Program-made: the position numbers and the translations under genes
Shown here: positions 7,632 through 16,942 of the stretch, in pieces
Layout of the letters: each line of letters begins with the position of its first letter
Position numbering within the stretch: position 1 is the stretch's first letter
Assembly (NCBI GenBank): GCA_030041335.1
Contig: JASHOB010000037.1
Span: forward strand, 11,640 to 75,639
Length of the DNA stretch: 64,000 nt
Direction of reading: 5' to 3'
DNA from: Alphaproteobacteria bacterium
Lineage (GTDB): Bacteria; Pseudomonadota; Alphaproteobacteria; ATCC43930; CGMCC-115725
Notes under the pieces: model-generated
What the model saw: the letters and a program-made list of their open reading frames with translations, nothing else
The model's database searches: none
What the model was told of the DNA's origin: nothing

Positions 7632-8524
7632 GGTCCTTCATCCACGGGTTGTTCGGCGGGGGCGCGACCGGTCCCAAGCAGAAAGCAGCCGCGAAGTGCG
7701 TCGGCCTGGCAAGCGGCGACGGCGTGGCCGATGCGCACGGCGATCCGCGGCGCAAAGGTGGCGGCCAAGCCGCCTGAAGCATAGAGCAAATCGTCCGAGC
7801 CGATATCGAGCCGGCTGGCAAGCGCGGCGAGGTGCGCGACGGCGCGCTCGCAAATGGCGTTGGCGCAGGCGACGCCCTGATCGGCTGCCGCGAGCACGAG
7901 CGGAGCGAAGGCAGCTAGCCGGTCGGGCGTGATACCGGTCAGCGTTTCGGCGATGCCGGCGCGGCCGCCGATACGCGCGAGTACGCCGTCGCTGAGTCCG
8001 TCCGCGGGCACAATGCCGTCGACGACGGCGAGCGTGTGCCGCAGTGCCCTGATGCCGAGCCACGCGCCGCTGCCGCGATCCCCGCCGATCCAACCCCAGG
8101 CATCGCGCTGAATCGAACGCCCGTTTGGCCACAGCCGGTGGCCGGCAACGCCGGTGCCGATGATAACGATGCCGCAAGGCTGGCCGCCGCCGGCGCCGAT
8201 CAATGCGGCATAGCCGTCGCTTGCCGTCACGGTCCGTGCAAAGCCGGGGATAGCGGCGAGGAACCGGTCCCTTGCCGACGGCACATAGAGTCCGGCGGCG
8301 CCAATCGAGAGGACGACGCTGCCGGATGCCCTTGCGTCGTACCCGGCGCCGACACAACATTCCCACCACAGCGTTGCGAAGGTGGCGACGGCGTTGTCGG
8401 GGCCTGTGCTCGGATTACAGGCGCCGCCATCGGCTGCCGCCAATCGCGCACCACCGGCGTTGACGAGGCAGGCCTTGCTCTTAGTGCCACCCCCCTCGAC
8501 GCAAAAGAGTAGATCATCGGCCAT
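7628..8524 (-). CDS. BadF/BadG/BcrA/BcrD-type ATPase, N-acetylglucosamine-kinase-like
   Basis: N-terminal phosphate-1 motif FCVEGGGTKSKACL and an actin-like ATPase fold pattern. First gene of the operon. Confidence 0.7.
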   Translation of the reverse strand: MADDLLFCVEGGGTKSKACLVNAGGARLAAADGGACNPSTGPDNAVATFATLWWECCVGAGYDARASGSVVLSIGAAGLYVPSARDRFLAAIPGFARTVTASDGYAALIGAGGGQPCGIVIIGTGVAGHRLWPNGRSIQRDAWGWIGGDRGSGAWLGIRALRHTLAVVDGIVPADGLSDGVLARIGGRAGIAETLTGITPDRLAAFAPLVLAAADQGVACANAICERAVAHLAALASRLDIGSDDLLYASGGLAATFAPRIAVRIGHAVAACQADALRGCFLLGTGRAPAEQPVDEGP

Positions 8525-8876
8525 CTCCTAATGTTACTCGCGAAACGCGACGGCAGGAAATTATCGGATTTCCCCGTCCGAATGATTGGCCCCTCACTGC
8601 GGCCCGGGCGCAGGGACGCGCGGCGCCGCTATCGCGACGAGCTAGGCGAACACACCGTGGCGTGTTGGTGGACGCGCCTCGCAAGGCAAAAGGAGCAGGT
8701 TTGCGCCCGACAGCAGAGGCGCAGGGGGGTGGGAGTGACGCGACACGATCGCGCCGGTGATAAAGGCAGTGGGGAGATGGCAGGCCCTAGACCAAAAAGA
8801 CCGCAGATCGGCCCAATCGGCGAACCTATTCGCGATTACCCTCGACAGACGCCCGAGCCGCGTGGCATTTTATATT

Positions 8877-8898
8877 GCAGTTATCTGGCAGTTATCCG
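8877..8898. repeat. tandem 11-bp direct repeat GCAGTTATC(T/C)G x2
   Basis: Read directly: gcagttatctg gcagttatccg. It lies in the non-coding stretch between the nag operon promoter and the small ORF at 8994. Confidence 0.5.
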
Positions 8899-8993
8899 GC
8901 ATCGACCTCTGACTGATTTCGTGGAGGGAACGAGCACCACTTCGTCGCTTTGAGCGTTAACAATAACTGAGAAAAGAGCTCATCCATTGCGAG

Positions 8994-9308
8994 GTGAGAT
9001 TGTCTCGTAGCAAATCTCTTTGGAACTATGAGTTCCTTCTAACGCGCAGCTCGCCGGGTGATTTTGTCATCTTAGGCAGCGGCGAGTTTAGGGCGCCTGA
9101 CTTGGCCGCAGCGAAATCAATTCTCGCCAGCGTCGTAACCAACATCAAGGTCCACGGCTCCGTTCCACCGAATGCAATCCGATTGATCGATCCAAGTGGT
9201 GAGGAAATCTGGCGAGCACTCATTGCGGGTCCGCGCCCCGCTGCTCGTCGGCCGGTTCATGAGATCCATGTCCGTCGTGGCCATCGGCAGAGGGCGACCA
9301 GGAAATGA
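8994..9308 (+). CDS. hypothetical small protein
   Basis: GTG-start ORF in a lower-GC segment. The first ~75 aa look protein-like (WNYEFLLTRSSPGDFVILGSGEFRAPDLAAAKSILASVV...). The tail is Arg-rich. No family recognised. Confidence 0.3.
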   Translation: MRLSRSKSLWNYEFLLTRSSPGDFVILGSGEFRAPDLAAAKSILASVVTNIKVHGSVPPNAIRLIDPSGEEIWRALIAGPRPAARRPVHEIHVRRGHRQRATRK

Positions 9309-9394
9309 CGGCATGACCAGAGGCCCAGGAGCCAAGCAGGTGCTTTAATCAATGGCGCCTTGCGGCTCGACGGCAGCATGCAAAAATCCCGAAC

Positions 9395-9574
9395 ATGCTC
9401 AACGTCATCTACCGCGTGGTCGAACGCCGGCCGGGAAGGTTTGTCGTCGAGGCTTTCAGCGAGGATCACGGGACATGGCGATCGATAGCTGAATTTGCTA
9501 CCTCGCAGGAGGCTCACGCGCGCAAGGCCAAATTGGAACAAATCTTGCGGGCTTCGCGTGGAGAGCCGGGCTGA
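9395..9574 (+). CDS. hypothetical 59-aa protein (below ORF-track cutoff)
   Basis: My translation: MLNVIYRVVERRPGRFVVEAFSEDHGTWRSIAEFATSQEAHARKAKLEQILRASRGEPG*. It loosely resembles the N-terminal half of ORF 8994. A strong hairpin follows. Confidence 0.3.
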   Translation: MLNVIYRVVERRPGRFVVEAFSEDHGTWRSIAEFATSQEAHARKAKLEQILRASRGEPG

Positions 9575-9600
9575 CCAGCCGATTGAGCGTGAGAGAGAAA

Positions 9601-9623
9601 AGCCCCCGGCGAGACCGGGGGCT
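9601..9623. terminator. perfect 9-bp-stem hairpin (AGCCCCCGG-cgaga-CCGGGGGCT), possible bidirectional terminator
   Basis: Read directly. On the minus strand the hairpin is followed by TTTCTCTCTC, so it could terminate the 9807..10289 gene. On the plus strand it lies 27 nt after the 9395..9574 stop but has no T-tract. Confidence 0.5.
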
Positions 9624-9806
9624 AGTTGGGGGTAAACCTCCATCCAAACGGTTTACGCACAACAGCATGCAACGAGCGTGGCTCGCTTTCCAGTTGTTCC
9701 ATTCAACGTTAACGAATGAGTTTCGGCGGGCCCACGAGATCGCAGGGAGGCCTAGCATTTGGTGCGCGCGCGCCCGATAGGTGGCGCCACCGCAACGTGC
9801 GATCTC

Positions 9807-10289
9807 TTAACGATCACCGTTGATCATGGGGTGCGCTTGGCGCCAATCCCCGAGAAAGAGGCGCTGAGCGTCGTTCAGGGACATACTGTGCCGATCACAC
9901 ACAGCAATGCAGACCGCGCGCTCAAGCTGATCCTTGAGTTCCGCGTCCTTCCTGGGCTGGGGCCAATGATTTCGCGGGTCAGCATTATTGCCGCCGAGGC
10001 ATAGCGGTACCCGATCGTCATCCTCGTAGAAATGGCTTTGCGATCGCGGGATGCCATATTTCGCGAGCGTACCAGGCTTGTCGTGCCAGAACCGATGTGT
10101 CGGGCTGTATGTGTATCGTCCGCTCGCATCCCTCGCGCAGACTTCGGCAACGTCGTGGCTGGCGACAGCGCCGGGCGTCAACTGCGGATCCGGCATCTCT
10201 AGTTCCCTGGCGTCAGGGGTGGGAATGTTCGCGCCGATGCTGGCGCAGCTGATCCAGGAGAGTAAGACGAGCGCGGCTTTTCGTTTCAC
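9807..10289 (-). CDS. secreted HNH-endonuclease-like protein (atypical motif)
   Basis: Signal peptide MKRKAALVLLSWISCASIGA. The core YEDDDRVPLCLGGNNADPRNHWPQP...KDQLERAVCIAVC resembles the E-x-D-H-x-x-P-L-x-x-GG...N-L-W-P-Q family as I remember it. Confidence 0.55.
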   Translation of the reverse strand: MKRKAALVLLSWISCASIGANIPTPDARELEMPDPQLTPGAVASHDVAEVCARDASGRYTYSPTHRFWHDKPGTLAKYGIPRSQSHFYEDDDRVPLCLGGNNADPRNHWPQPRKDAELKDQLERAVCIAVCDRHSMSLNDAQRLFLGDWRQAHPMINGDR

Positions 10290-10584
10290 CGAAGCTCAGT
10301 GCCAGGAGAATTCGCTTCGCACGCGATCGGGGGTGCCTGAATTGTGCGACCGCCGAACCGCGCCCTTCAAGTGTCTATCGTGGATAGCAGACATCCATTC
10401 TTATTCTTGCATTTCTCATGACGCAGGGTAAGCCCGCATCGCAACACGGGACAGAGGCGACATTGACGAAGCGACACAGAAGTGGAGCGTGGCCTCTCGT
10501 TTCAGTGCCACGGCGATCCGGGCCTCTATTCGTTGAGGTATGTCGCTTGCCAGTGACGGTGTTGATCGATACAACGCGAGATCG

Positions 10585-12021
10585 TCAGAACAGATCGAAG
10601 TACTCGCGCTGCTCCCAATCGCTGATATCGAGCTGGAAGCGCGCGAGCTCCGCTCCCTTTATCTGGCGATAGCAATCGATGAACGCGGCGCCAAAACCGT
10701 CACGTAGCGCGTCGTCGCCGCGCAAGGCCGCTAGCGCCTCGCCGAGATCCTTTGGCAGCATCGGCGCCTGGGTCTCGTAAGGCGCATCGGCCGGCGGTGG
10801 CGGCAGCAGTTTCCGTTTGATGCCGTCGAGGCCGCACACGATTTGCGAGCCGAGATAGAGGTAGGGGTTGGCCGCCGGCTCGCCGGCGCGGTTCTCGATA
10901 TGAGTGAGCGGATCAGACGGCGCTCCGACCACGCGCAGCATCGTACCGCGGTTGTCTCTGCCCCAGATCGCGCGATCCGGCGCCAACGAATAGGGACGAT
11001 AGCGCTTGTAACCGTTGATCGTCGGCGTGCTGAATGCGGCCGCGGCGGCGGCATGATCGAGCAGCCCGGCAAGATAATGCTGCCCGAGCGGACTAAGCAG
11101 GTCGACCTCGCCGGCGAACGCGTTTCCGCCGTTCTTCCTGTCGCGGAGCGACTGGTGCAGATGCCATCCGCTCGACATCGCGTTGGGGAAACGCGGGCGG
11201 CACATGAAGCTGGCAAGATAGCCGTAGCGGCGGCAGATCTGCTTGGTCGCGTTGCGGAACAGAATCATATTGTCCGCGGGTGCCATTCCGATTGCGGCAG
11301 GGAAGGTGAGCTCGACTTGGCTCGGTCCGAACTCGACCTCGAGCGAGCGCAAGGGCAGATCGAGCGCCGCGAGATTGGTGCGCAGCAGTTCGAACACCGG
11401 ATCGAGCTGGTCGTAACGCAGCTCAGTCAGGTATTGATAGCCCTGCGTCAGTAGGGAAACCTTAGGCGGATTGCCGGGCTCACCCGGACGGCCCGTGTCG
11501 CTCGGCTGCAGACTCGGATCGTCAAGCTTGAAAATATGGAACTCGACTTCGAGGCCAGCGACGAAATCGTACCCGAGGTCGCCGAGCTGATCGACCAGCG
11601 CCCGATAAAGCTGGCGCGTCGCCAGGGGCATTGGCCGGCCGTCGGGAAAATAAAGGTCGCACAGCATCCACCCGCTATGCGGCGCCCACGGCAGCACGCG
11701 GAACGTCGTTGGATCGGGCACCATCACAAGGTCGGCGCCACCCTCCATTTCGCGCGCGCCGAAGCCGCCGCCCGCGCTGAACACCGGATAGACGGTACGG
11801 TGCGACGTGTCCTTCAATAGCAGCGTCGTCGAAAAGCTCCAGCCGTTCGCCATCGCGTCCGGCGCTTCTGCCGCGGTGATTGTCTTCCCGCGCAGTACGC
11901 CGTGCTGATCGGGCACCGACAGGCGAATCACGTCAATCTTGTCTGCGACGCGCTTTAGCACCTCGTCGGCGTGCCTCGCCTCGTCAGGCGAGCGAAGCTG
12001 ATGCTTCTCAACGAAGGTCAC
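10585..12021 (-). CDS. glutamine synthetase family protein (gamma-glutamyl-amine synthetase-like)
   Basis: 478 aa with the GS beta-grasp N-domain (IRLSVPDQHGVLRGK) and catalytic-domain motifs (EVEFGPSQVELT, SSGWHLHQSL, NRGTMLRV). The GTG start overlaps the upstream stop as GTGA. Confidence 0.85.
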   Translation of the reverse strand: MTFVEKHQLRSPDEARHADEVLKRVADKIDVIRLSVPDQHGVLRGKTITAAEAPDAMANGWSFSTTLLLKDTSHRTVYPVFSAGGGFGAREMEGGADLVMVPDPTTFRVLPWAPHSGWMLCDLYFPDGRPMPLATRQLYRALVDQLGDLGYDFVAGLEVEFHIFKLDDPSLQPSDTGRPGEPGNPPKVSLLTQGYQYLTELRYDQLDPVFELLRTNLAALDLPLRSLEVEFGPSQVELTFPAAIGMAPADNMILFRNATKQICRRYGYLASFMCRPRFPNAMSSGWHLHQSLRDRKNGGNAFAGEVDLLSPLGQHYLAGLLDHAAAAAAFSTPTINGYKRYRPYSLAPDRAIWGRDNRGTMLRVVGAPSDPLTHIENRAGEPAANPYLYLGSQIVCGLDGIKRKLLPPPPADAPYETQAPMLPKDLGEALAALRGDDALRDGFGAAFIDCYRQIKGAELARFQLDISDWEQREYFDLF

Positions 12022-13316
12022 GGCGTTTGCCAGGGGGCGGCACTGCGGCGCTTTAAATCAGCGTCCCGCCAGTAACTATCCCATTCGTTTGTGGGCGCGA
12101 CGCCGTCGATGGTGACCGGTAGCTCGTGATTGTCGGGCCGCGACAGGAGCGTTACTTCGCCTGCCTCCGCTTTGTCGATCGCGTCGAGCAGTACGCGGCG
12201 ATAGGCGGAGATCGCTTTATCGGTCTGACCAAGATGCTCGCGCGTGCGGTCGTGTATGCGACCCTGGCTCTCCACCGCCCAATTGTCGTGAACGTTAATG
12301 TCCATGCCCATGCCCGTGAAGGTCTGGATCTTCTGCTCGGCGGCACTGTATCCCCAATTATTGTGCCGGTTCACGCGCGGTTTGTAGTCGGGCAGCGCAT
12401 AGAGCTCGAGCCGCTGGCGCCGCATCTCTTGCTTGTTCACCGGATCGCGGAAACTAGTGAAGATCGCGTACCAATAGCAATTCTCGTCGTCGACCGGGAC
12501 GTGCCACTGCGTGATGGTCATGGTCTCACTGAGCGGGATCAGAACAGCATGCGGGAAGATCAGGTTGGTAACGCGGACATGCGTGTGCGCTTGGTCGAGC
12601 GGGCGCAGCGCAATCAGGCGCAGTCCATAGTCCGTGTTCTCCACGTCAATGCGCGGCCGCATGTGTTCGCGGAGCACACGGCTCATCGGCATGCTGCCGT
12701 CAATGGAGTTGGCGCGGAACTGTTTGCCGTAGGCGGTAGCCCCTTCTTCGTCCTCGAAAAAGCGATGCAGAAACGAAGCGTGCGCAGGGTCGATGCCGAC
12801 TTCAAGCGCCTGAAGCCAATTGCAATCGATGTGGCCCTTGAAGGCGAAACTGTATGCGTCGGGCGAGGCGAAACAGTCGAGCCGGGGGAGAGCGGGCGCC
12901 TCGCCCGCGCCAAGATAAGCCCAGATAATGCCATTCTTTTCGCGCACCGCATAAGAGGCTTGCCGTACCCTCTCGTGCAGACGGCTGCCATCGGGTTCTG
13001 CCGGCGTTTCACGGCACCGGCCTGCTGCGTCGAACAACCAGCCGTGAAAGGCGCACCGCAGGCCGCCGTCCTCTAGTCGCCCGAACGCAAGGTCAGCGCC
13101 ACGGTGGGGGCAGTCGCGGTCGAGCAGGCCCAATCGCCCTGCGTCGTCGCGAAATAGCACTAAGTCCTGGCCTAGGACGCGTATCGCGCGGAGTGGCCGC
13201 TCAGGCACCAACTCCTCGGACAGTGCGACTGGTTGCCAATAGTGACGCTGCAATGTCCCGCACGGCGTGCCGGGGCCGACCCGCACTACCCGCTCGTTCT
13301 GTTCATGACTCATCAT
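12018..13316 (-). CDS. Rieske [2Fe-2S] non-haem-iron oxygenase, alpha-subunit type
   Basis: Rieske motif CPHRGADL...CAFHGW. The later DPAHASFLH looks like a mononuclear-iron motif. 432 aa. No beta subunit or reductase is adjacent. Confidence 0.85.
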   Translation of the reverse strand: MMSHEQNERVVRVGPGTPCGTLQRHYWQPVALSEELVPERPLRAIRVLGQDLVLFRDDAGRLGLLDRDCPHRGADLAFGRLEDGGLRCAFHGWLFDAAGRCRETPAEPDGSRLHERVRQASYAVREKNGIIWAYLGAGEAPALPRLDCFASPDAYSFAFKGHIDCNWLQALEVGIDPAHASFLHRFFEDEEGATAYGKQFRANSIDGSMPMSRVLREHMRPRIDVENTDYGLRLIALRPLDQAHTHVRVTNLIFPHAVLIPLSETMTITQWHVPVDDENCYWYAIFTSFRDPVNKQEMRRQRLELYALPDYKPRVNRHNNWGYSAAEQKIQTFTGMGMDINVHDNWAVESQGRIHDRTREHLGQTDKAISAYRRVLLDAIDKAEAGEVTLLSRPDNHELPVTIDGVAPTNEWDSYWRDADLKRRSAAPWQTP

Positions 13317-14109
13317 AGCGACGGTCCTTTACCCAGGGAGCAATTGCGCGCTCCGATTAGTTATATTAGTCGAACAATTCACACGTCCTTCGAATTTCAT
13401 CAATCAATTAACAGCAACGCAACGGCGGTGCCGCCATGTACCGCGAACGCGATGGTCCTGCTACGGCGTTGGTGCAACACGATCATGGCGTCAGGAGATG
13501 GATGAGGGCGGCGATTCGCATGAACCAACCAAGCGCGGGGCCCCGTATGCTATAAGCATCGCGATGAATAGTCCCGAGGCGATGTCGCGAATACTTTTAG
13601 CCGATAGATACGCTCGAGAATGCGGCTCAGCGCCGGCCGGTACGCCCTAAGCCGCGGCGGCTGTTGAAGGTGCCAACAGAAAGCGGCAGTCGATGAAAAT
13701 GATCCCAGCTGCGATCACACCGGACAGGTAGAAACCGATACCTGTCATAATGCGTCTCATTCTCCGTCACACTGCTCGGACTTTGCGGATATGTCGTTTG
13801 AATACAATCCGGGCGTCCGTCGAGGGTAGCCGCCGACCCAATCTTTGGGAAGCGGCCAGCTTGTCGTGAACGGGTACCCGGCACTTTCCTTGCAAGCGGA
13901 CGCAACAGGCGATCAGAGGTAAAATCGTTGTTGCACAAAGCAGAAATGGCGCAACGCTCCACCTCATGTCTTTCGGAGTAGATTCCCCAGTTTATGAGCA
14001 CACGCCTAGCAGAAGGACGCCCTTCGGTCTCGCGTTGGTCGAGGTACTCGCGCAAGGCCGGATCAGCCTCTATATGGGACATCCTAATTGGCGCGCTTGG
14101 GGGAACCAT

Positions 14110-14362
14110 CATGGCTGACCAGCTACACACTATGACGATGGATCAGTTGCATTACCTTGCCATCGACCAGACCGGCCAGCTGTATTGGCACGGTGAACTT
14201 GTGCGAACGTCGATGGTACTCCCTACCTTCGTGAATGTGGCAATCATCATTGGCGCCCTTGCAGCCTTGATAAGTGCAGTAGTGGCAGCAATTGGCCTCT
14301 ACCGGGGAATAGTGAGGGAACGGCTGCGTGAGCGGGAGCTAGAGCAGCAAAAGCCTTCCTAG
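14110..14362 (+). CDS. hypothetical small membrane protein
   Basis: MADQLHTMTMDQLHYLAIDQTGQLYWHGELV... followed by one clear TM helix (LPTFVNVAIIIGALAALISAVVAAIGLY). GGGGGA lies just upstream of the ATG. Lower-GC segment. Confidence 0.35.
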
Positions 14363-14363
14363 C

Positions 14364-15012
14364 TCAAACCAGTCCCGTATTTCGTCGCCGCGATAAGCGG
14401 GCCGGCACAAGCTCGATGCGGCACCAAAGACAGCGCGAACGATGACCCGATCGATGAAATCGATGAAATTTCATTCCACGAATCTCAACACATCGGTCGA
14501 TACGGACGAGTTTGCTGCCGTGATCGAAATTAAACGACGCGTAGTTTGCGGTTCCCGTTACCGCCGGCGAGCATGGCCGCCGCCAACTTTTGCCTCGCTG
14601 CGATCCGTCTCGCCTTGATCGGGTCATAGTCGCGCAGCGGCGATGGTTCGCCATCTTGGGCGAGCCGATCCGAACACGGCGATACTTTTCTTGGGCGGCC
14701 CGGTCGCGGAATTGCGTATAGATCCGCTGATTGACCTTCCATACTCGCTTGTTGTGATTGGGTTGGTAATCTCGTTCCCGCCAACCTAATGCCACGAGCG
14801 GCGAAACCGCATCTTCTACTTCGCGAGATCGTCTTGCCCTCGAGGCCCTTTACCTTCGAGGTCAGATCGGAAGGGACGATCCGCGCCGTTCGATGGGCCA
14901 GCAGGTAACCGGCGACGGATGGCGTCAGGTCGATATCCTGGCCGGCGCCCAGCCGGGCACAGCACCGCACCGCCGGCGGCATCCAAAAATCGCGAACCAG
15001 GGTGTCGGCCAT
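14364..15012 (-). pseudogene. decayed ORF(s), unidentified (possible mobile-element or phage remnant)
   Basis: Two overlapping minus-strand ORFs in different frames (14530..15012 and 14364..14795). Protein-like stretches switch frame, e.g. ...KGLEGKTI / AREVEDAVSPLVALGWRERDYQPNHNKRVWKV... and ...DYDPIKARRIAARQKLAAAML. No intact family motif recognised. Confidence 0.3.
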
Positions 15013-15496
15013 AGCCGCGGTTTCGCGCCTACTTCGGTTTGAAGGCGGCGTCTAATAGCATGATGGAGTATCAACGCTACACGTCCGAAGATACCGGGCA
15101 GCTTGCCGACATCGGTGCGGAAGCCCATGCCTGGCGGACTATTGGTTTCGGTGTCGAGCAGATCCGTTCCAACGGGTGGCAGATGGCGCGGGCCACGGAC
15201 GAGACGCTCAATATGCGCCCTCCGGGAACGGTGACGAGGTATTCGATGAAGGCTCTCGTACTTGTCGACTTGGCGTCGACGCTCCCGATCCTTTAGCCAG
15301 CCGACGCGGTCGCATCAGGGTGACCGGGGAAGGCAGCAACAAACCGTCTTCGATCAGATTGCCCGGCTTACGCAGCCGCAAGGGCTGCACGCCGCCCATG
15401 ACGGCCGTTCCGGGCTTTCCAGGTGCTTCGCCGCAAGCGATCGCGCCGTGGGCTCCTGTCGGGGTTCCACGTGTGGGATAAGTACAGGGTCGGGCG

Positions 15497-15820
15497 TTAT
15501 TGCACAGTCGAATGCGGAGTCGGCACGATGCGGGTGACCACCATTTTCTCGCGATCGAGACACGCACGCACGCGCGGGGCGATTTGGGTCTTCCAGTACT
15601 CGCTCTCGTATACGGCTATGTATTGCGCCTCGCGCTCGGCTTCGCTGTTGAAACGGCGCAGCCAGACATAGACCGACTCATCCGTCTCCCCACGGAAACT
15701 GCCGCAGATCACCATGCCCTTCGAGACCTGGAAGGGAATAATTTCCTCTTCGATGATCTTCACCCACTCGTCCATTTTGCCCGGGCGGACGTGATACTGT
15801 CGGAGTTCGTAGAAAGCCAT
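15497..15820 (-). CDS. NIPSNAP family protein
   Basis: 107 aa, MAFYELRQYHVRPGKMDEWVKIIEEEIIPFQ...VWLRRFNSEAEREA. This is the typical NIPSNAP single-domain pattern. Confidence 0.8.
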   Translation of the reverse strand: MAFYELRQYHVRPGKMDEWVKIIEEEIIPFQVSKGMVICGSFRGETDESVYVWLRRFNSEAEREAQYIAVYESEYWKTQIAPRVRACLDREKMVVTRIVPTPHSTVQ

Positions 15821-15946
15821 CTGAATCCTCCATTGCTTAGCACAGCCGAAAGCATAGGCGAGTGGCAGACGGCTTGCCAGTCAAGGACCCTCCCCCACCT
15901 TTGCGCGGCGATCCCCGGGGCGGCAAAGGCGCCCTCTCAGCGTGGC

Positions 15947-16942
15947 TCACCTGAGCAACAGTGCACCGACAAACAGAAGGTAGAGCGCGCTCGCCCAGGA
16001 TAGACGCTTGCCGGTGACGCGTTCGCCGCGGAACATGAAGAACAGAGCTAGCACGGCGGCCGTCGTAACGGCGGCTGCGGCGATCAGTGGCCGCTCAAAC
16101 AGCCAAGGCGTCCAGAAGAGGCCGCAAGCCGTGGGGATGGTTGCCTGTATCATCATGGCACCGCTGATGTTCGCAAGAGCCATATTCTCCCTTCCTTTTC
16201 GCACCCAAATAATCGCGTTCATGGTCTCCGGCATTTCGGTCGCGATCGGGCTCAGCAGCAGCGCGACAAGCTGCGGGCCTAAGCCGAGCCATGGGCCGAT
16301 GGCATCGAGCTGCGTTACAAAGACACGTGAGGCCGCGAAGATAATGACGAGGGCGAGACCGGTTTGCAGGGCCGCCCATAGGAGCGAAGGGCGGGTATCC
16401 TTGGGTCTCAACCGGAGCGGTTCAAGCTCGTGCTCGTCGATGGTCCTCTCGTCGCGGCGGAGCTCCTTCAGTACGTAAAGGGCATAAGCGCCAACAAAAA
16501 GAAATCCAAGCCATGGCTTGCCCGGAAATGTCACAAGACCAAGGGCAAACTTGCACACGAAGATAGACAGGAACCAACCCTGATCCCGATTCATTTGGCG
16601 GCAATCAACGTCGAGGGCGTCCTTGCGGCGGACCTTGAGGCGCCTTGACCCCATGAGCGTCAAGCCCACAACGCCATAGGCAAGAGTGCTAAGCGCAAGG
16701 GGTCCGCCAAGCGCGGCGCCGACGCCGATCTCGCGCTCTGCAGGGCTATGCCCGAAGGCGACTGCGACGAAAGTGACGACGCTTTCGGGCAAGGCGGTGC
16801 CAAAAGCAGCGAGGATCGTGCCCGTCGCCGTCCGGCTGACAGCGAGCCGCTTGCCCAGCCACTCAACGGCGTTCACAAAGAGCTCGCAGGAAAAGTAGAT
16901 CAGGACGGCTGAGCCGAAGAACAAGAGAAGTGTGAGAGCCAT
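15947..16942 (-). CDS. sodium/calcium exchanger (CaCA) family membrane protein
   Basis: Two alpha-repeat motifs (AAFGTALPESVVT and SPIATEMPETMNA) in a ~10-TM protein. Confidence 0.85.
   Translation of the reverse strand: MALTLLLFFGSAVLIYFSCELFVNAVEWLGKRLAVSRTATGTILAAFGTALPESVVTFVAVAFGHSPAEREIGVGAALGGPLALSTLAYGVVGLTLMGSRRLKVRRKDALDVDCRQMNRDQGWFLSIFVCKFALGLVTFPGKPWLGFLFVGAYALYVLKELRRDERTIDEHELEPLRLRPKDTRPSLLWAALQTGLALVIIFAASRVFVTQLDAIGPWLGLGPQLVALLLSPIATEMPETMNAIIWVRKGRENMALANISGAMMIQATIPTACGLFWTPWLFERPLIAAAAVTTAAVLALFFMFRGERVTGKRLSWASALYLLFVGALLLR

Follow-up and report, generated by a model that had tools for sequence, protein, structure and literature searches.

Two described groups of enzymes come closest to the locus considered here. 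In the aniline and 1-naphthylamine systems (AtdA1-A5, TdnQTA1A2B and NpaA1-A5), the arylamine is gamma-glutamylated at the expense of ATP and the anilide is then dioxygenated to a catechol by a Rieske enzyme (PMC11335346). The sad operon of Hydrogenophaga intermedia PBC, as outlined in PMC5632844 (citing Gan et al. 2012), combines the oxygenase gene sadA and the glutamine synthetase (GS)-like gene sadB (protein accessions WP_009515254.1 and WP_009515256.1) with genes for a ferredoxin and a reductase, and the system is described there as a 4-aminobenzenesulfonate 3,4-dioxygenase. Because the operon is conserved in unexposed strains, the authors of that outline expected the encoded enzymes to act in nature on a molecule similar to 4-aminobenzenesulfonate (PMC5632844). 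Here we analyse a 64,000-nucleotide stretch from an Alphaproteobacteria bacterium (assembly GCA_030041335.1, contig JASHOB010000037.1, positions 11,640 to 75,639; hereafter, the window), in which a Rieske oxygenase gene is followed directly by a GS-like gene. We read this pair, with a probability of roughly 75%, as a Sad-type gamma-glutamylation-dependent arylamine deaminating dioxygenase.

The order of an alpha-only Rieske oxygenase gene and then a GS-like ligase gene is shared with the sad operon and with a pair on plasmid pSA3 of Novosphingobium resinovorum SA1, and relatives of the window pair have the fuller, sad-like operon architecture. At the window, however, no ferredoxin, reductase or regulator gene is linked, and the two genes overlap. 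The aniline-type systems follow the chemistry proposed here but use a two-subunit (alpha and beta) oxygenase and a fused reductase, and their cluster carries a gene for a glutamine amidotransferase (GAT)-like hydrolase, whereas the window encodes an alpha-only, phthalate-type oxygenase with neither a GAT-like (GATase) nor a beta-subunit gene nearby.

Results

A ligase of the arylamine type

The two open reading frames (ORFs) fill positions 10585-13316 of the window on the minus strand, oxygenase first and ligase second (Table 1), and neither product reaches the cut-off of a curated NCBIfam model. The ligase contains a Gln-synt_C domain (PF00120, 2.9e-73) and scores 206-211 bits against models for GlnA, type III GS and gamma-glutamylputrescine synthetase, whose cut-offs lie at 429-650 (TIGR00653 for GlnA type I, 206 bits against 429; NF045547, 210 against 650; TIGR03105, 204 against 469). 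We aligned it with Escherichia coli GlnA and PuuA and with the two other GS-family genes of the genome. All metal, ATP and glutamate ligands are kept (E158, E160, E230, E237, H287, H289, R340, R358, R363, E376, R378), but the GlnA ammonium-site positions D50, S53 and flap E327 are occupied by S64, L67 and L346, and the adenylylation site Tyr397 has no counterpart. The genuine GlnA of the genome is encoded on another contig (C108) and carries D50, S53, E327 and Y397, while the third GS-family gene (contig C160) groups with PuuA in the tree, apart from the ligase.

The failure of NpaA1-type enzymes to use ammonium has been put down to loss of GlnA D50 and flap E327 (PMC11335346), positions held by A69 and L351 in NpaA1. 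Since the ammonium-site residues are likewise lost here, the ligase is predicted to be unable to fix ammonium. NpaA1, a 1-naphthylamine/aniline gamma-glutamyl ligase (PMC11335346), is also the closest solved structure (8wwu; 437.7 bits, E 4.8e-130, 46.5% identity over 471 columns). The next match in the Protein Data Bank (PDB) reaches 182 bits, GmaS-type structures give 137-146 bits, and identity to E. coli PuuA is 24%. In the tree the ligase falls within a SadB-like/NpaA1 group (support 92/97), separate from GlnA and PuuA. Judged by sequence, then, we assign it as a gamma-glutamyl-amine ligase of the arylamine type and not a GS. An initial annotation of this DNA, made from the sequence alone, had proposed a gamma-glutamyl-amine ligase; the residue comparison, the tree and the presence of a real GlnA elsewhere all favour that proposal.

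The amine tunnel of NpaA1 comprises the loop V68'-M81' and F86' of the adjacent subunit, with a bottleneck at F75', F86' and W235 (PMC11335346). Across 90 members of the window ligase's family the loop has the consensus TT[LM]LxKDTSHRTV, with Lys at the NpaA1 F75 position in 87 of 87 sequences, His at position 79 in 85 of 87 and Arg or Lys at position 80 in 85 of 87; the window ligase motif, TTLLLKDTSHRTV (K70, H74, R75), matches it. The aniline-type tunnel is hydrophobic (F75, F86, W235 or W81), in contrast to the Lys, His and Arg of the window enzyme. A positively charged tunnel of this kind would fit an acidic aniline, and an anionic para-substituted aniline is the most likely substrate. 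The ligase of N. resinovorum SA1 shares the invariant Lys but, like just one other sequence, has Asn at both 79 and 81 in the tunnel, so specificity appears to be tunable at these sites. That the window ligase keeps the consensus His and Thr there, where the SA1 enzyme deviates, suggests that it serves a natural rather than a xenobiotic substrate.

An alpha-only oxygenase with intact metal sites

The oxygenase combines a Rieske domain (PF00355, 3.3e-19) with a LigXa_C domain (PF19301, 3.6e-30). In an eight-sequence alignment the Rieske ligands C69, H71, C88 and H91 are invariant, as are the mononuclear iron ligands H179, H184 and D344 (2-His-1-carboxylate), and the H-x4-H motif aligns to that of phthalate dioxygenase (7fjl/7v25). 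Its best PDB matches, at 214-217 bits, are phthalate 4,5-dioxygenases; the next (dicamba demethylase, carbazole dioxygenase and others) cover the Rieske domain only. We therefore place it, on these alignments, in the one-subunit, alpha-only phthalate-dioxygenase family, with an intact Rieske centre and iron site. No beta-subunit gene adjoins it, in line with the homomeric type named by the initial annotation. The GbcA/CntA/Stc2-like option raised there fell away, as none of these NCBIfam models matches the oxygenase at E <= 0.001 and the protein is of the phthalate-dioxygenase/LigXa_C type.

Phthalate 4,5-dioxygenase (7fhr, 7fjl/7v25) is thus the closest solved fold; it has the same Rieske and iron ligands, and both enzymes may act on anionic aromatic substrates, that of the window enzyme being predicted. 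It differs in having no ligase partner and in not being deaminating, and the HMMER alignments between the two (214-217 bits) are only partly conserved. The genome contains at least eight more phthalate-family Rieske paralogues (contigs C76, C164, C187, C90, C142, C152, C176 and C209), which are 32-37% identical to SadA-type queries; the paralogue on C164 has a divergent IclR gene and no ligase.

Overlapping genes

The junction of the two genes reads ...GCC GTG ACC..., in which the oxygenase stop TGA and the ligase start GTG share four bases. The GTGA overlap claimed in the initial annotation is thereby confirmed, together with both ORFs and their domains; through it, the ligase would be translationally coupled to the oxygenase. 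The CCGTGA junction is identical in a genome of the same genus (G003), and the N-terminal homology of the ligase to NpaA1 and the N. resinovorum homologue begins at residue 2-3, two observations that make the GTG start credible. Wider relatives do not show the overlap found here, with 0-515 nt lying between the tblastn matches of the two genes. In another congener (G005, locus L113:5390-7237), a signalling gene (615 aa) that encodes an adenylate/guanylate cyclase domain and tetratricopeptide (TPR) repeats separates the Rieske gene from the GS-like gene, with an overlap at each end. The stretch upstream of the oxygenase gene (13317-13626) showed no sigma-70 consensus site.

Table 1. Positions of the paired genes, their overlap and the adjoining upstream sequence in the window.
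Feature	Coordinates	Strand	Remarks
Rieske oxygenase gene	12018..13316	minus	ATG start, 432 aa; SadA-like, alpha-only, phthalate-dioxygenase family
Glutamine-synthetase-like gene	10585..12021	minus	GTG start, 478 aa; SadB-like, putative arylamine gamma-glutamyl ligase
GTGA stop/start overlap	12018..12021	minus	Read from sequence; presumed translational coupling
Upstream intergenic stretch	13317..13626		Presumed promoter region; regulator gene does not follow

The pairing is conserved among relatives

A scan of one genome per species for oxygenase relatives found them in at least 583 species-representative genomes. We sampled the loci of the best 80 matches and a few others, mostly from Alphaproteobacteria, which gave 92 loci with an oxygenase more than 50% identical to that of the window. 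Three end at a contig edge, and a GS-like gene lies directly downstream of the Rieske gene in 88 of the 89 informative loci, which upholds the functional coupling proposed in the initial annotation. Moreover, the identities of the two proteins to their window counterparts co-vary (r = 0.88). The exception is a metagenome-assembled genome (MAG) of Ferrovibrio (L056), in which no ligase gene follows the oxygenase homologue (66% identical); instead, the opposite strand carries, at a distance of 9 kb, a GS-like gene that is more divergent (53%).

Within 7 kb of the pair, an IclR gene occurs in 52 of 90 loci, usually as the divergent gene just upstream according to a tally of ORF clusters, while a ferredoxin and reductase occur in 16 and a GATase-like gene in 6; redox and hydrolase partners are all absent in 73. 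The bare pair is thus the usual state among the relatives sampled, and the window is unusual in also having no regulator. For the remaining neighbours, synteny is lineage-specific. Eight of the 90 loci, including that of Bradyrhizobium prioriisuperbiae, have an Amidohydro_3 gene within 7 kb, and some Bradyrhizobium loci (L010, L064, L073, L086, L093) have a benzoate-CoA-ligase-like gene and a regulator with helix-turn-helix (HTH) and shikimate-kinase domains (BzdR/BoxR-like) near the pair.

Searches of plasmids with tblastn returned full-length homologues of 60-65% identity in Burkholderia/Caballeronia, Methylobacterium, Polaromonas, Cupriavidus and N. resinovorum SA1, and pairs in fuller operons are 58-65% identical to the window proteins. 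The operons of Polaromonas JS666 and Caballeronia insecticola run from a GntR regulator through the Rieske and GS-like genes to a 2Fe-2S ferredoxin and a reductase with flavin adenine dinucleotide (FAD), followed by a type 1 glutamine amidotransferase/gamma-glutamyl-GABA-hydrolase-family protein and a transporter. Methylobacterium nodulans and B. prioriisuperbiae have a ferredoxin, a reductase and an IclR regulator divergently upstream of the pair. Nitroreductase-family and DUF4863 genes lie within about 6 kb of the pair on C. insecticola p2 (L014), where they stand on opposite sides of the operon, and on M. nodulans pMNOD01 (L015), where they are side by side; these neighbours hint at a link to nitroaromatic reduction feeding an arylamine route.

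The adjacent genes on pSA3 encode proteins that are each 60.5% identical to their window counterparts, and they sit in an island rich in insertion sequences (IS) together with maleylacetate reductase, a 2Fe-2S ferredoxin, an FAD reductase and glutaminase genes. A truncated IclR gene and IS elements surround the pair (L012), and the glutaminase gene is 6 kb off. The tree places the SA1 ligase within Bradyrhizobium/Nitrobacter sequences, and its tunnel departs from the consensus at positions 79 and 81; the SA1 pair thus seems to have been recruited and retuned for sulfanilate.

Genomic surroundings and spread within the genus

Downstream of the pair lies an amino-sugar operon (SIS, amidohydrolase, BadF-type kinase and periplasmic binding protein) that ends at 8524; upstream are a Na/Ca exchanger (15947-16942) and a catalase-related/cytochrome b561 pair. 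The initial annotation had described lower-GC flanks of orphan or decayed ORFs and had considered the pair an acquired cassette. GC content is indeed lower in the flanks, at 58.8% (8525-10584) and 58.4% (13317-15946) against 62.3% for the genome, and no flank ORF has a Pfam match, but decay is unlikely in the left flank, whose small ORFs are probably real small genes. They belong to a multi-copy family with nucleotide matches of 67-75% on contigs C15, C18, C164, C152, C99 and C186, and the ORF at 8994-9308 has 78% protein identity in a congener, G006. On the other side, a 2.1-kb segment (13349-15486) upstream of the oxygenase gene has no second copy in the genome and no Pfam match; the syntenic G006 locus has no counterpart to it and about 1.2 kb of unrelated sequence in its place. 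The low-GC flanks are gene-poor, lineage-variable DNA.

Acquisition as a cassette is not borne out. The two genes have a GC content of 63.7% and 61.9%, typical of the genome, and a third-position GC (GC3) of 0.77 and 0.73, against a long-ORF median of 0.72, and their ratios of nonsynonymous to synonymous substitution (dN/dS) against G003 are 0.085 and 0.109, values that indicate purifying selection on both. The pair is present in seven of eight genomes of the same genus and in 3 of 16 other genera of the family. In six congeners its proteins are 80-87% identical, and in G006, whose assembly contains frameshifts, nucleotide identity is about 86%. The window flanks (the nag operon, the small ORF at 8994-9308 and the Na/Ca exchanger) are common only to G006 and are thus rarer than the pair itself. 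In G001, G003, G005, G007 and G008 the pair is located elsewhere and the nag gene is absent; in G003 and G001 it adjoins a paralogue of elongation factor G (EF-G), and the Na/Ca exchanger on its own has a 63% homologue on a different contig of G001. The pair is therefore more widespread in the genus than its present neighbours, has changed position there by movement or rearrangement and is patchy at the family level, and recent import into this genome is not supported. An insertion-free site could not be defined, because the flanking genes are missing from most congeners.

The syntenic locus of G006 (L116; G006:C3:101500-121400) comes from a 7.9-Mb MAG in 20 contigs and has frameshifts in the pair, nagA and the Na/Ca exchanger gene. 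We considered the G006 pair as a pseudogene and rejected this in favour of assembly error, the likelier cause because nagA and the exchanger are frameshift-split as well.

The contig of the pair (C55) encodes no ferredoxin, reductase, GATase-like hydrolase or IclR/GntR homologue of the related operons, which accords with the absence of partner genes in the initial annotation, and no remnant of an IclR regulator or of the EF-G neighbour of relatives was detected in the flanks. The nearest candidates are on other contigs: a ferredoxin gene at C165:1406-1714, 34-50% identical to dedicated ones, and reductase genes on C80, C173 and C225, at 27-36%.

Discussion

By homology with the described systems, the ligase would use ATP and L-glutamate to turn an aromatic amine into its gamma-glutamyl anilide, after which the homomeric oxygenase, supplied with electrons by a ferredoxin and reductase whose genes lie elsewhere in the genome, would dioxygenate the ring at the nitrogen-bearing carbon and its neighbour. 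The hemiaminal-type diol should then collapse to a catechol, with the nitrogen, on chemical grounds, probably leaving as the amide of glutamine; the glutaminase gene in the SA1 island is weakly consistent with this last step. A two-gene core can work, because the GAT-like hydrolase NpaA2 is dispensable for conversion in the Npa system (PMC11335346). Any novelty claimed for the system disappears, since its logic and architecture match described sad and aniline-dioxygenase systems (as outlined in PMC5632844; PMC11335346). Our literature search found LigXa-type oxygenases tied to GS-like ligases nowhere beyond the aniline, naphthylamine and sad work.

Several points weigh against this assignment or its substrate. 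Membership of the Sad type is argued from the SA1 homologues, the operon architecture and NpaA1, not from the Hydrogenophaga SadA and SadB sequences, and the role of the pSA3 pair as the SA1 sulfanilate dioxygenase is likewise deduced from genomic context. Hydrogenophaga was absent among the best 80 of at least 583 oxygenase relatives and among the best 120 proteins (all at least 79% identical) from a search seeded with the Polaromonas homologue, and its sole tblastn match on plasmids was a 40% paralogue. The ferredoxin and reductase genes are unlinked to the pair, the in-trans candidates are poorly alike to dedicated ones, and no regulator is present at the locus. The commonest gene clusters around the 90 loci include no consistently linked ring-cleavage gene, so that the catechol product is not pinned down. 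The case for 4-aminobenzoate, finally, draws on the charge of the tunnel, the sad literature and the reported pab pathway of Paraburkholderia terrae KU-15.

Among anionic anilines we tentatively favour 4-aminobenzoate, with protocatechuate as the product, at slightly less than even odds; sulfanilate-like compounds come second. The KU-15 pab pathway is reported to convert 4-aminobenzoate to protocatechuate via gamma-glutamyl-4-carboxyanilide and to employ a three-component dioxygenase and a GAT-like hydrolase alongside a GS-like ligase, which would be the gene set of the Caballeronia and Burkholderia relatives; a literature search for a gamma-glutamyl route of 4-aminobenzoate in this strain returned nothing. 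Protocatechuate could enter a 4,5-cleavage pathway encoded on contig C194 (L098, C194:73000-77000), where ligA (161 bits against a cut-off of 108.6) and ligB (482 against 317) are clustered with genes for a LigC-like Gfo/Idh/MocA oxidoreductase and an amidohydrolase resembling LigI/4-sulfomuconolactone hydrolase; no PcaH scores above cut-off in the genome.

It is also conceivable, if doubtful, that the bare pair, which lacks redox and hydrolase partners in 73 of the 90 loci and, in this genus, a regulator as well, is a housekeeping salvage route and not a xenobiotic pathway. Its substrate would be an anionic arylamine that occurs naturally, for example 4-aminobenzoate derived from the turnover of folate. 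The amine nitrogen would then pass directly into glutamine, shared cellular ferredoxins would supply the electrons, and SA1 and other sulfanilate degraders would have recruited the pair from Nitrobacteraceae-like donors and retuned the tunnel of its ligase (H79N, T81N). Another option is that the natural substrate is an arylamine not yet considered.

Fairly unlikely in our view, though sharing the mechanism of the Sad-type assignment, is a different aromatic amine, for instance 3- or 2-aminobenzoate, 4-aminosalicylate, an aminophenylacetate, a breakdown product of folate or kynurenine, or an arylamine set free through amidase or amidohydrolase action, in which case the product would not be protocatechuate. 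Amidohydro_3 or amidase genes that adjoin the pair at certain loci, in Bradyrhizobium and elsewhere, nitroreductase and DUF4863 genes beside it in Caballeronia and Methylobacterium, the non-consensus tunnel residues 79 and 81 of the SA1 ligase and the want of a consistently linked ring-cleavage gene all speak for such a substrate. However, the invariant Lys and the His-Arg of the tunnel fit an acidic para substituent, and the sole function described for the family in the outline of PMC5632844 is with 4-aminobenzenesulfonate.

The initial annotation had suggested a minimal gamma-glutamylation-dependent system for amine oxidation or demethylation. Its order of events, glutamylation and then oxidation, survives; the aliphatic version, in which a GmaS/PuuA/Ipu-like ligase and a GbcA/CntA/Stc2-like monooxygenase would together oxidise or N-demethylate an amine that is aliphatic or methylated, we consider highly improbable. 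Aliphatic-amine pathways do use GS-like ligases, the top NCBIfam models of the ligase are gamma-glutamylputrescine synthetase and type III GS, albeit far under their cut-offs (210 against 650 and 204 against 469 bits), and, by our own reasoning, hydroxylation beside the nitrogen of a gamma-glutamyl alkylamide would in principle free glutamine and an aldehyde. Yet the oxygenase matches LigXa_C and phthalate dioxygenases and none of the CntA, GbcA and Stc2 models, the ligase has 46.5% identity to NpaA1 and only 24% to E. coli PuuA and scores 437 bits against NpaA1 and 137-146 against GmaS, and the relatives stand in arylamine-type operons. A Rieske N-dealkylase releasing glutamine and an aldehyde was accordingly dropped given the arylamine-type homologies. 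That the ligase is a spare ammonium-assimilating GS placed beside an unrelated oxygenase by chance is scarcely credible: it has the Gln-synt_C domain with every metal, ATP and glutamate ligand, but D50, S53 and flap E327 are replaced by Ser, Leu and Leu, Y397 is absent, a complete GlnA is encoded on C108, and the oxygenase is adjacent in 88 of 89 loci, a pairing conserved as the initial annotation had anticipated.

The pair is thus an intact copy of a very widespread two-gene module and an ordinary instance of a described pathway type; apart from the close GTGA coupling and the missing regulator, the window shows nothing unusual here. Public records carry misleading labels for both proteins: 'glutamine synthetase family protein' for the ligase, and 'phthalate 4,5-dioxygenase' or 'aromatic ring-hydroxylating dioxygenase subunit alpha' for the oxygenase. 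The main gain is therefore better annotation: characterising one member would re-annotate many genes, across at least 583 species genomes, and its biochemistry would clarify how soil bacteria recycle aminobenzoate-type compounds.

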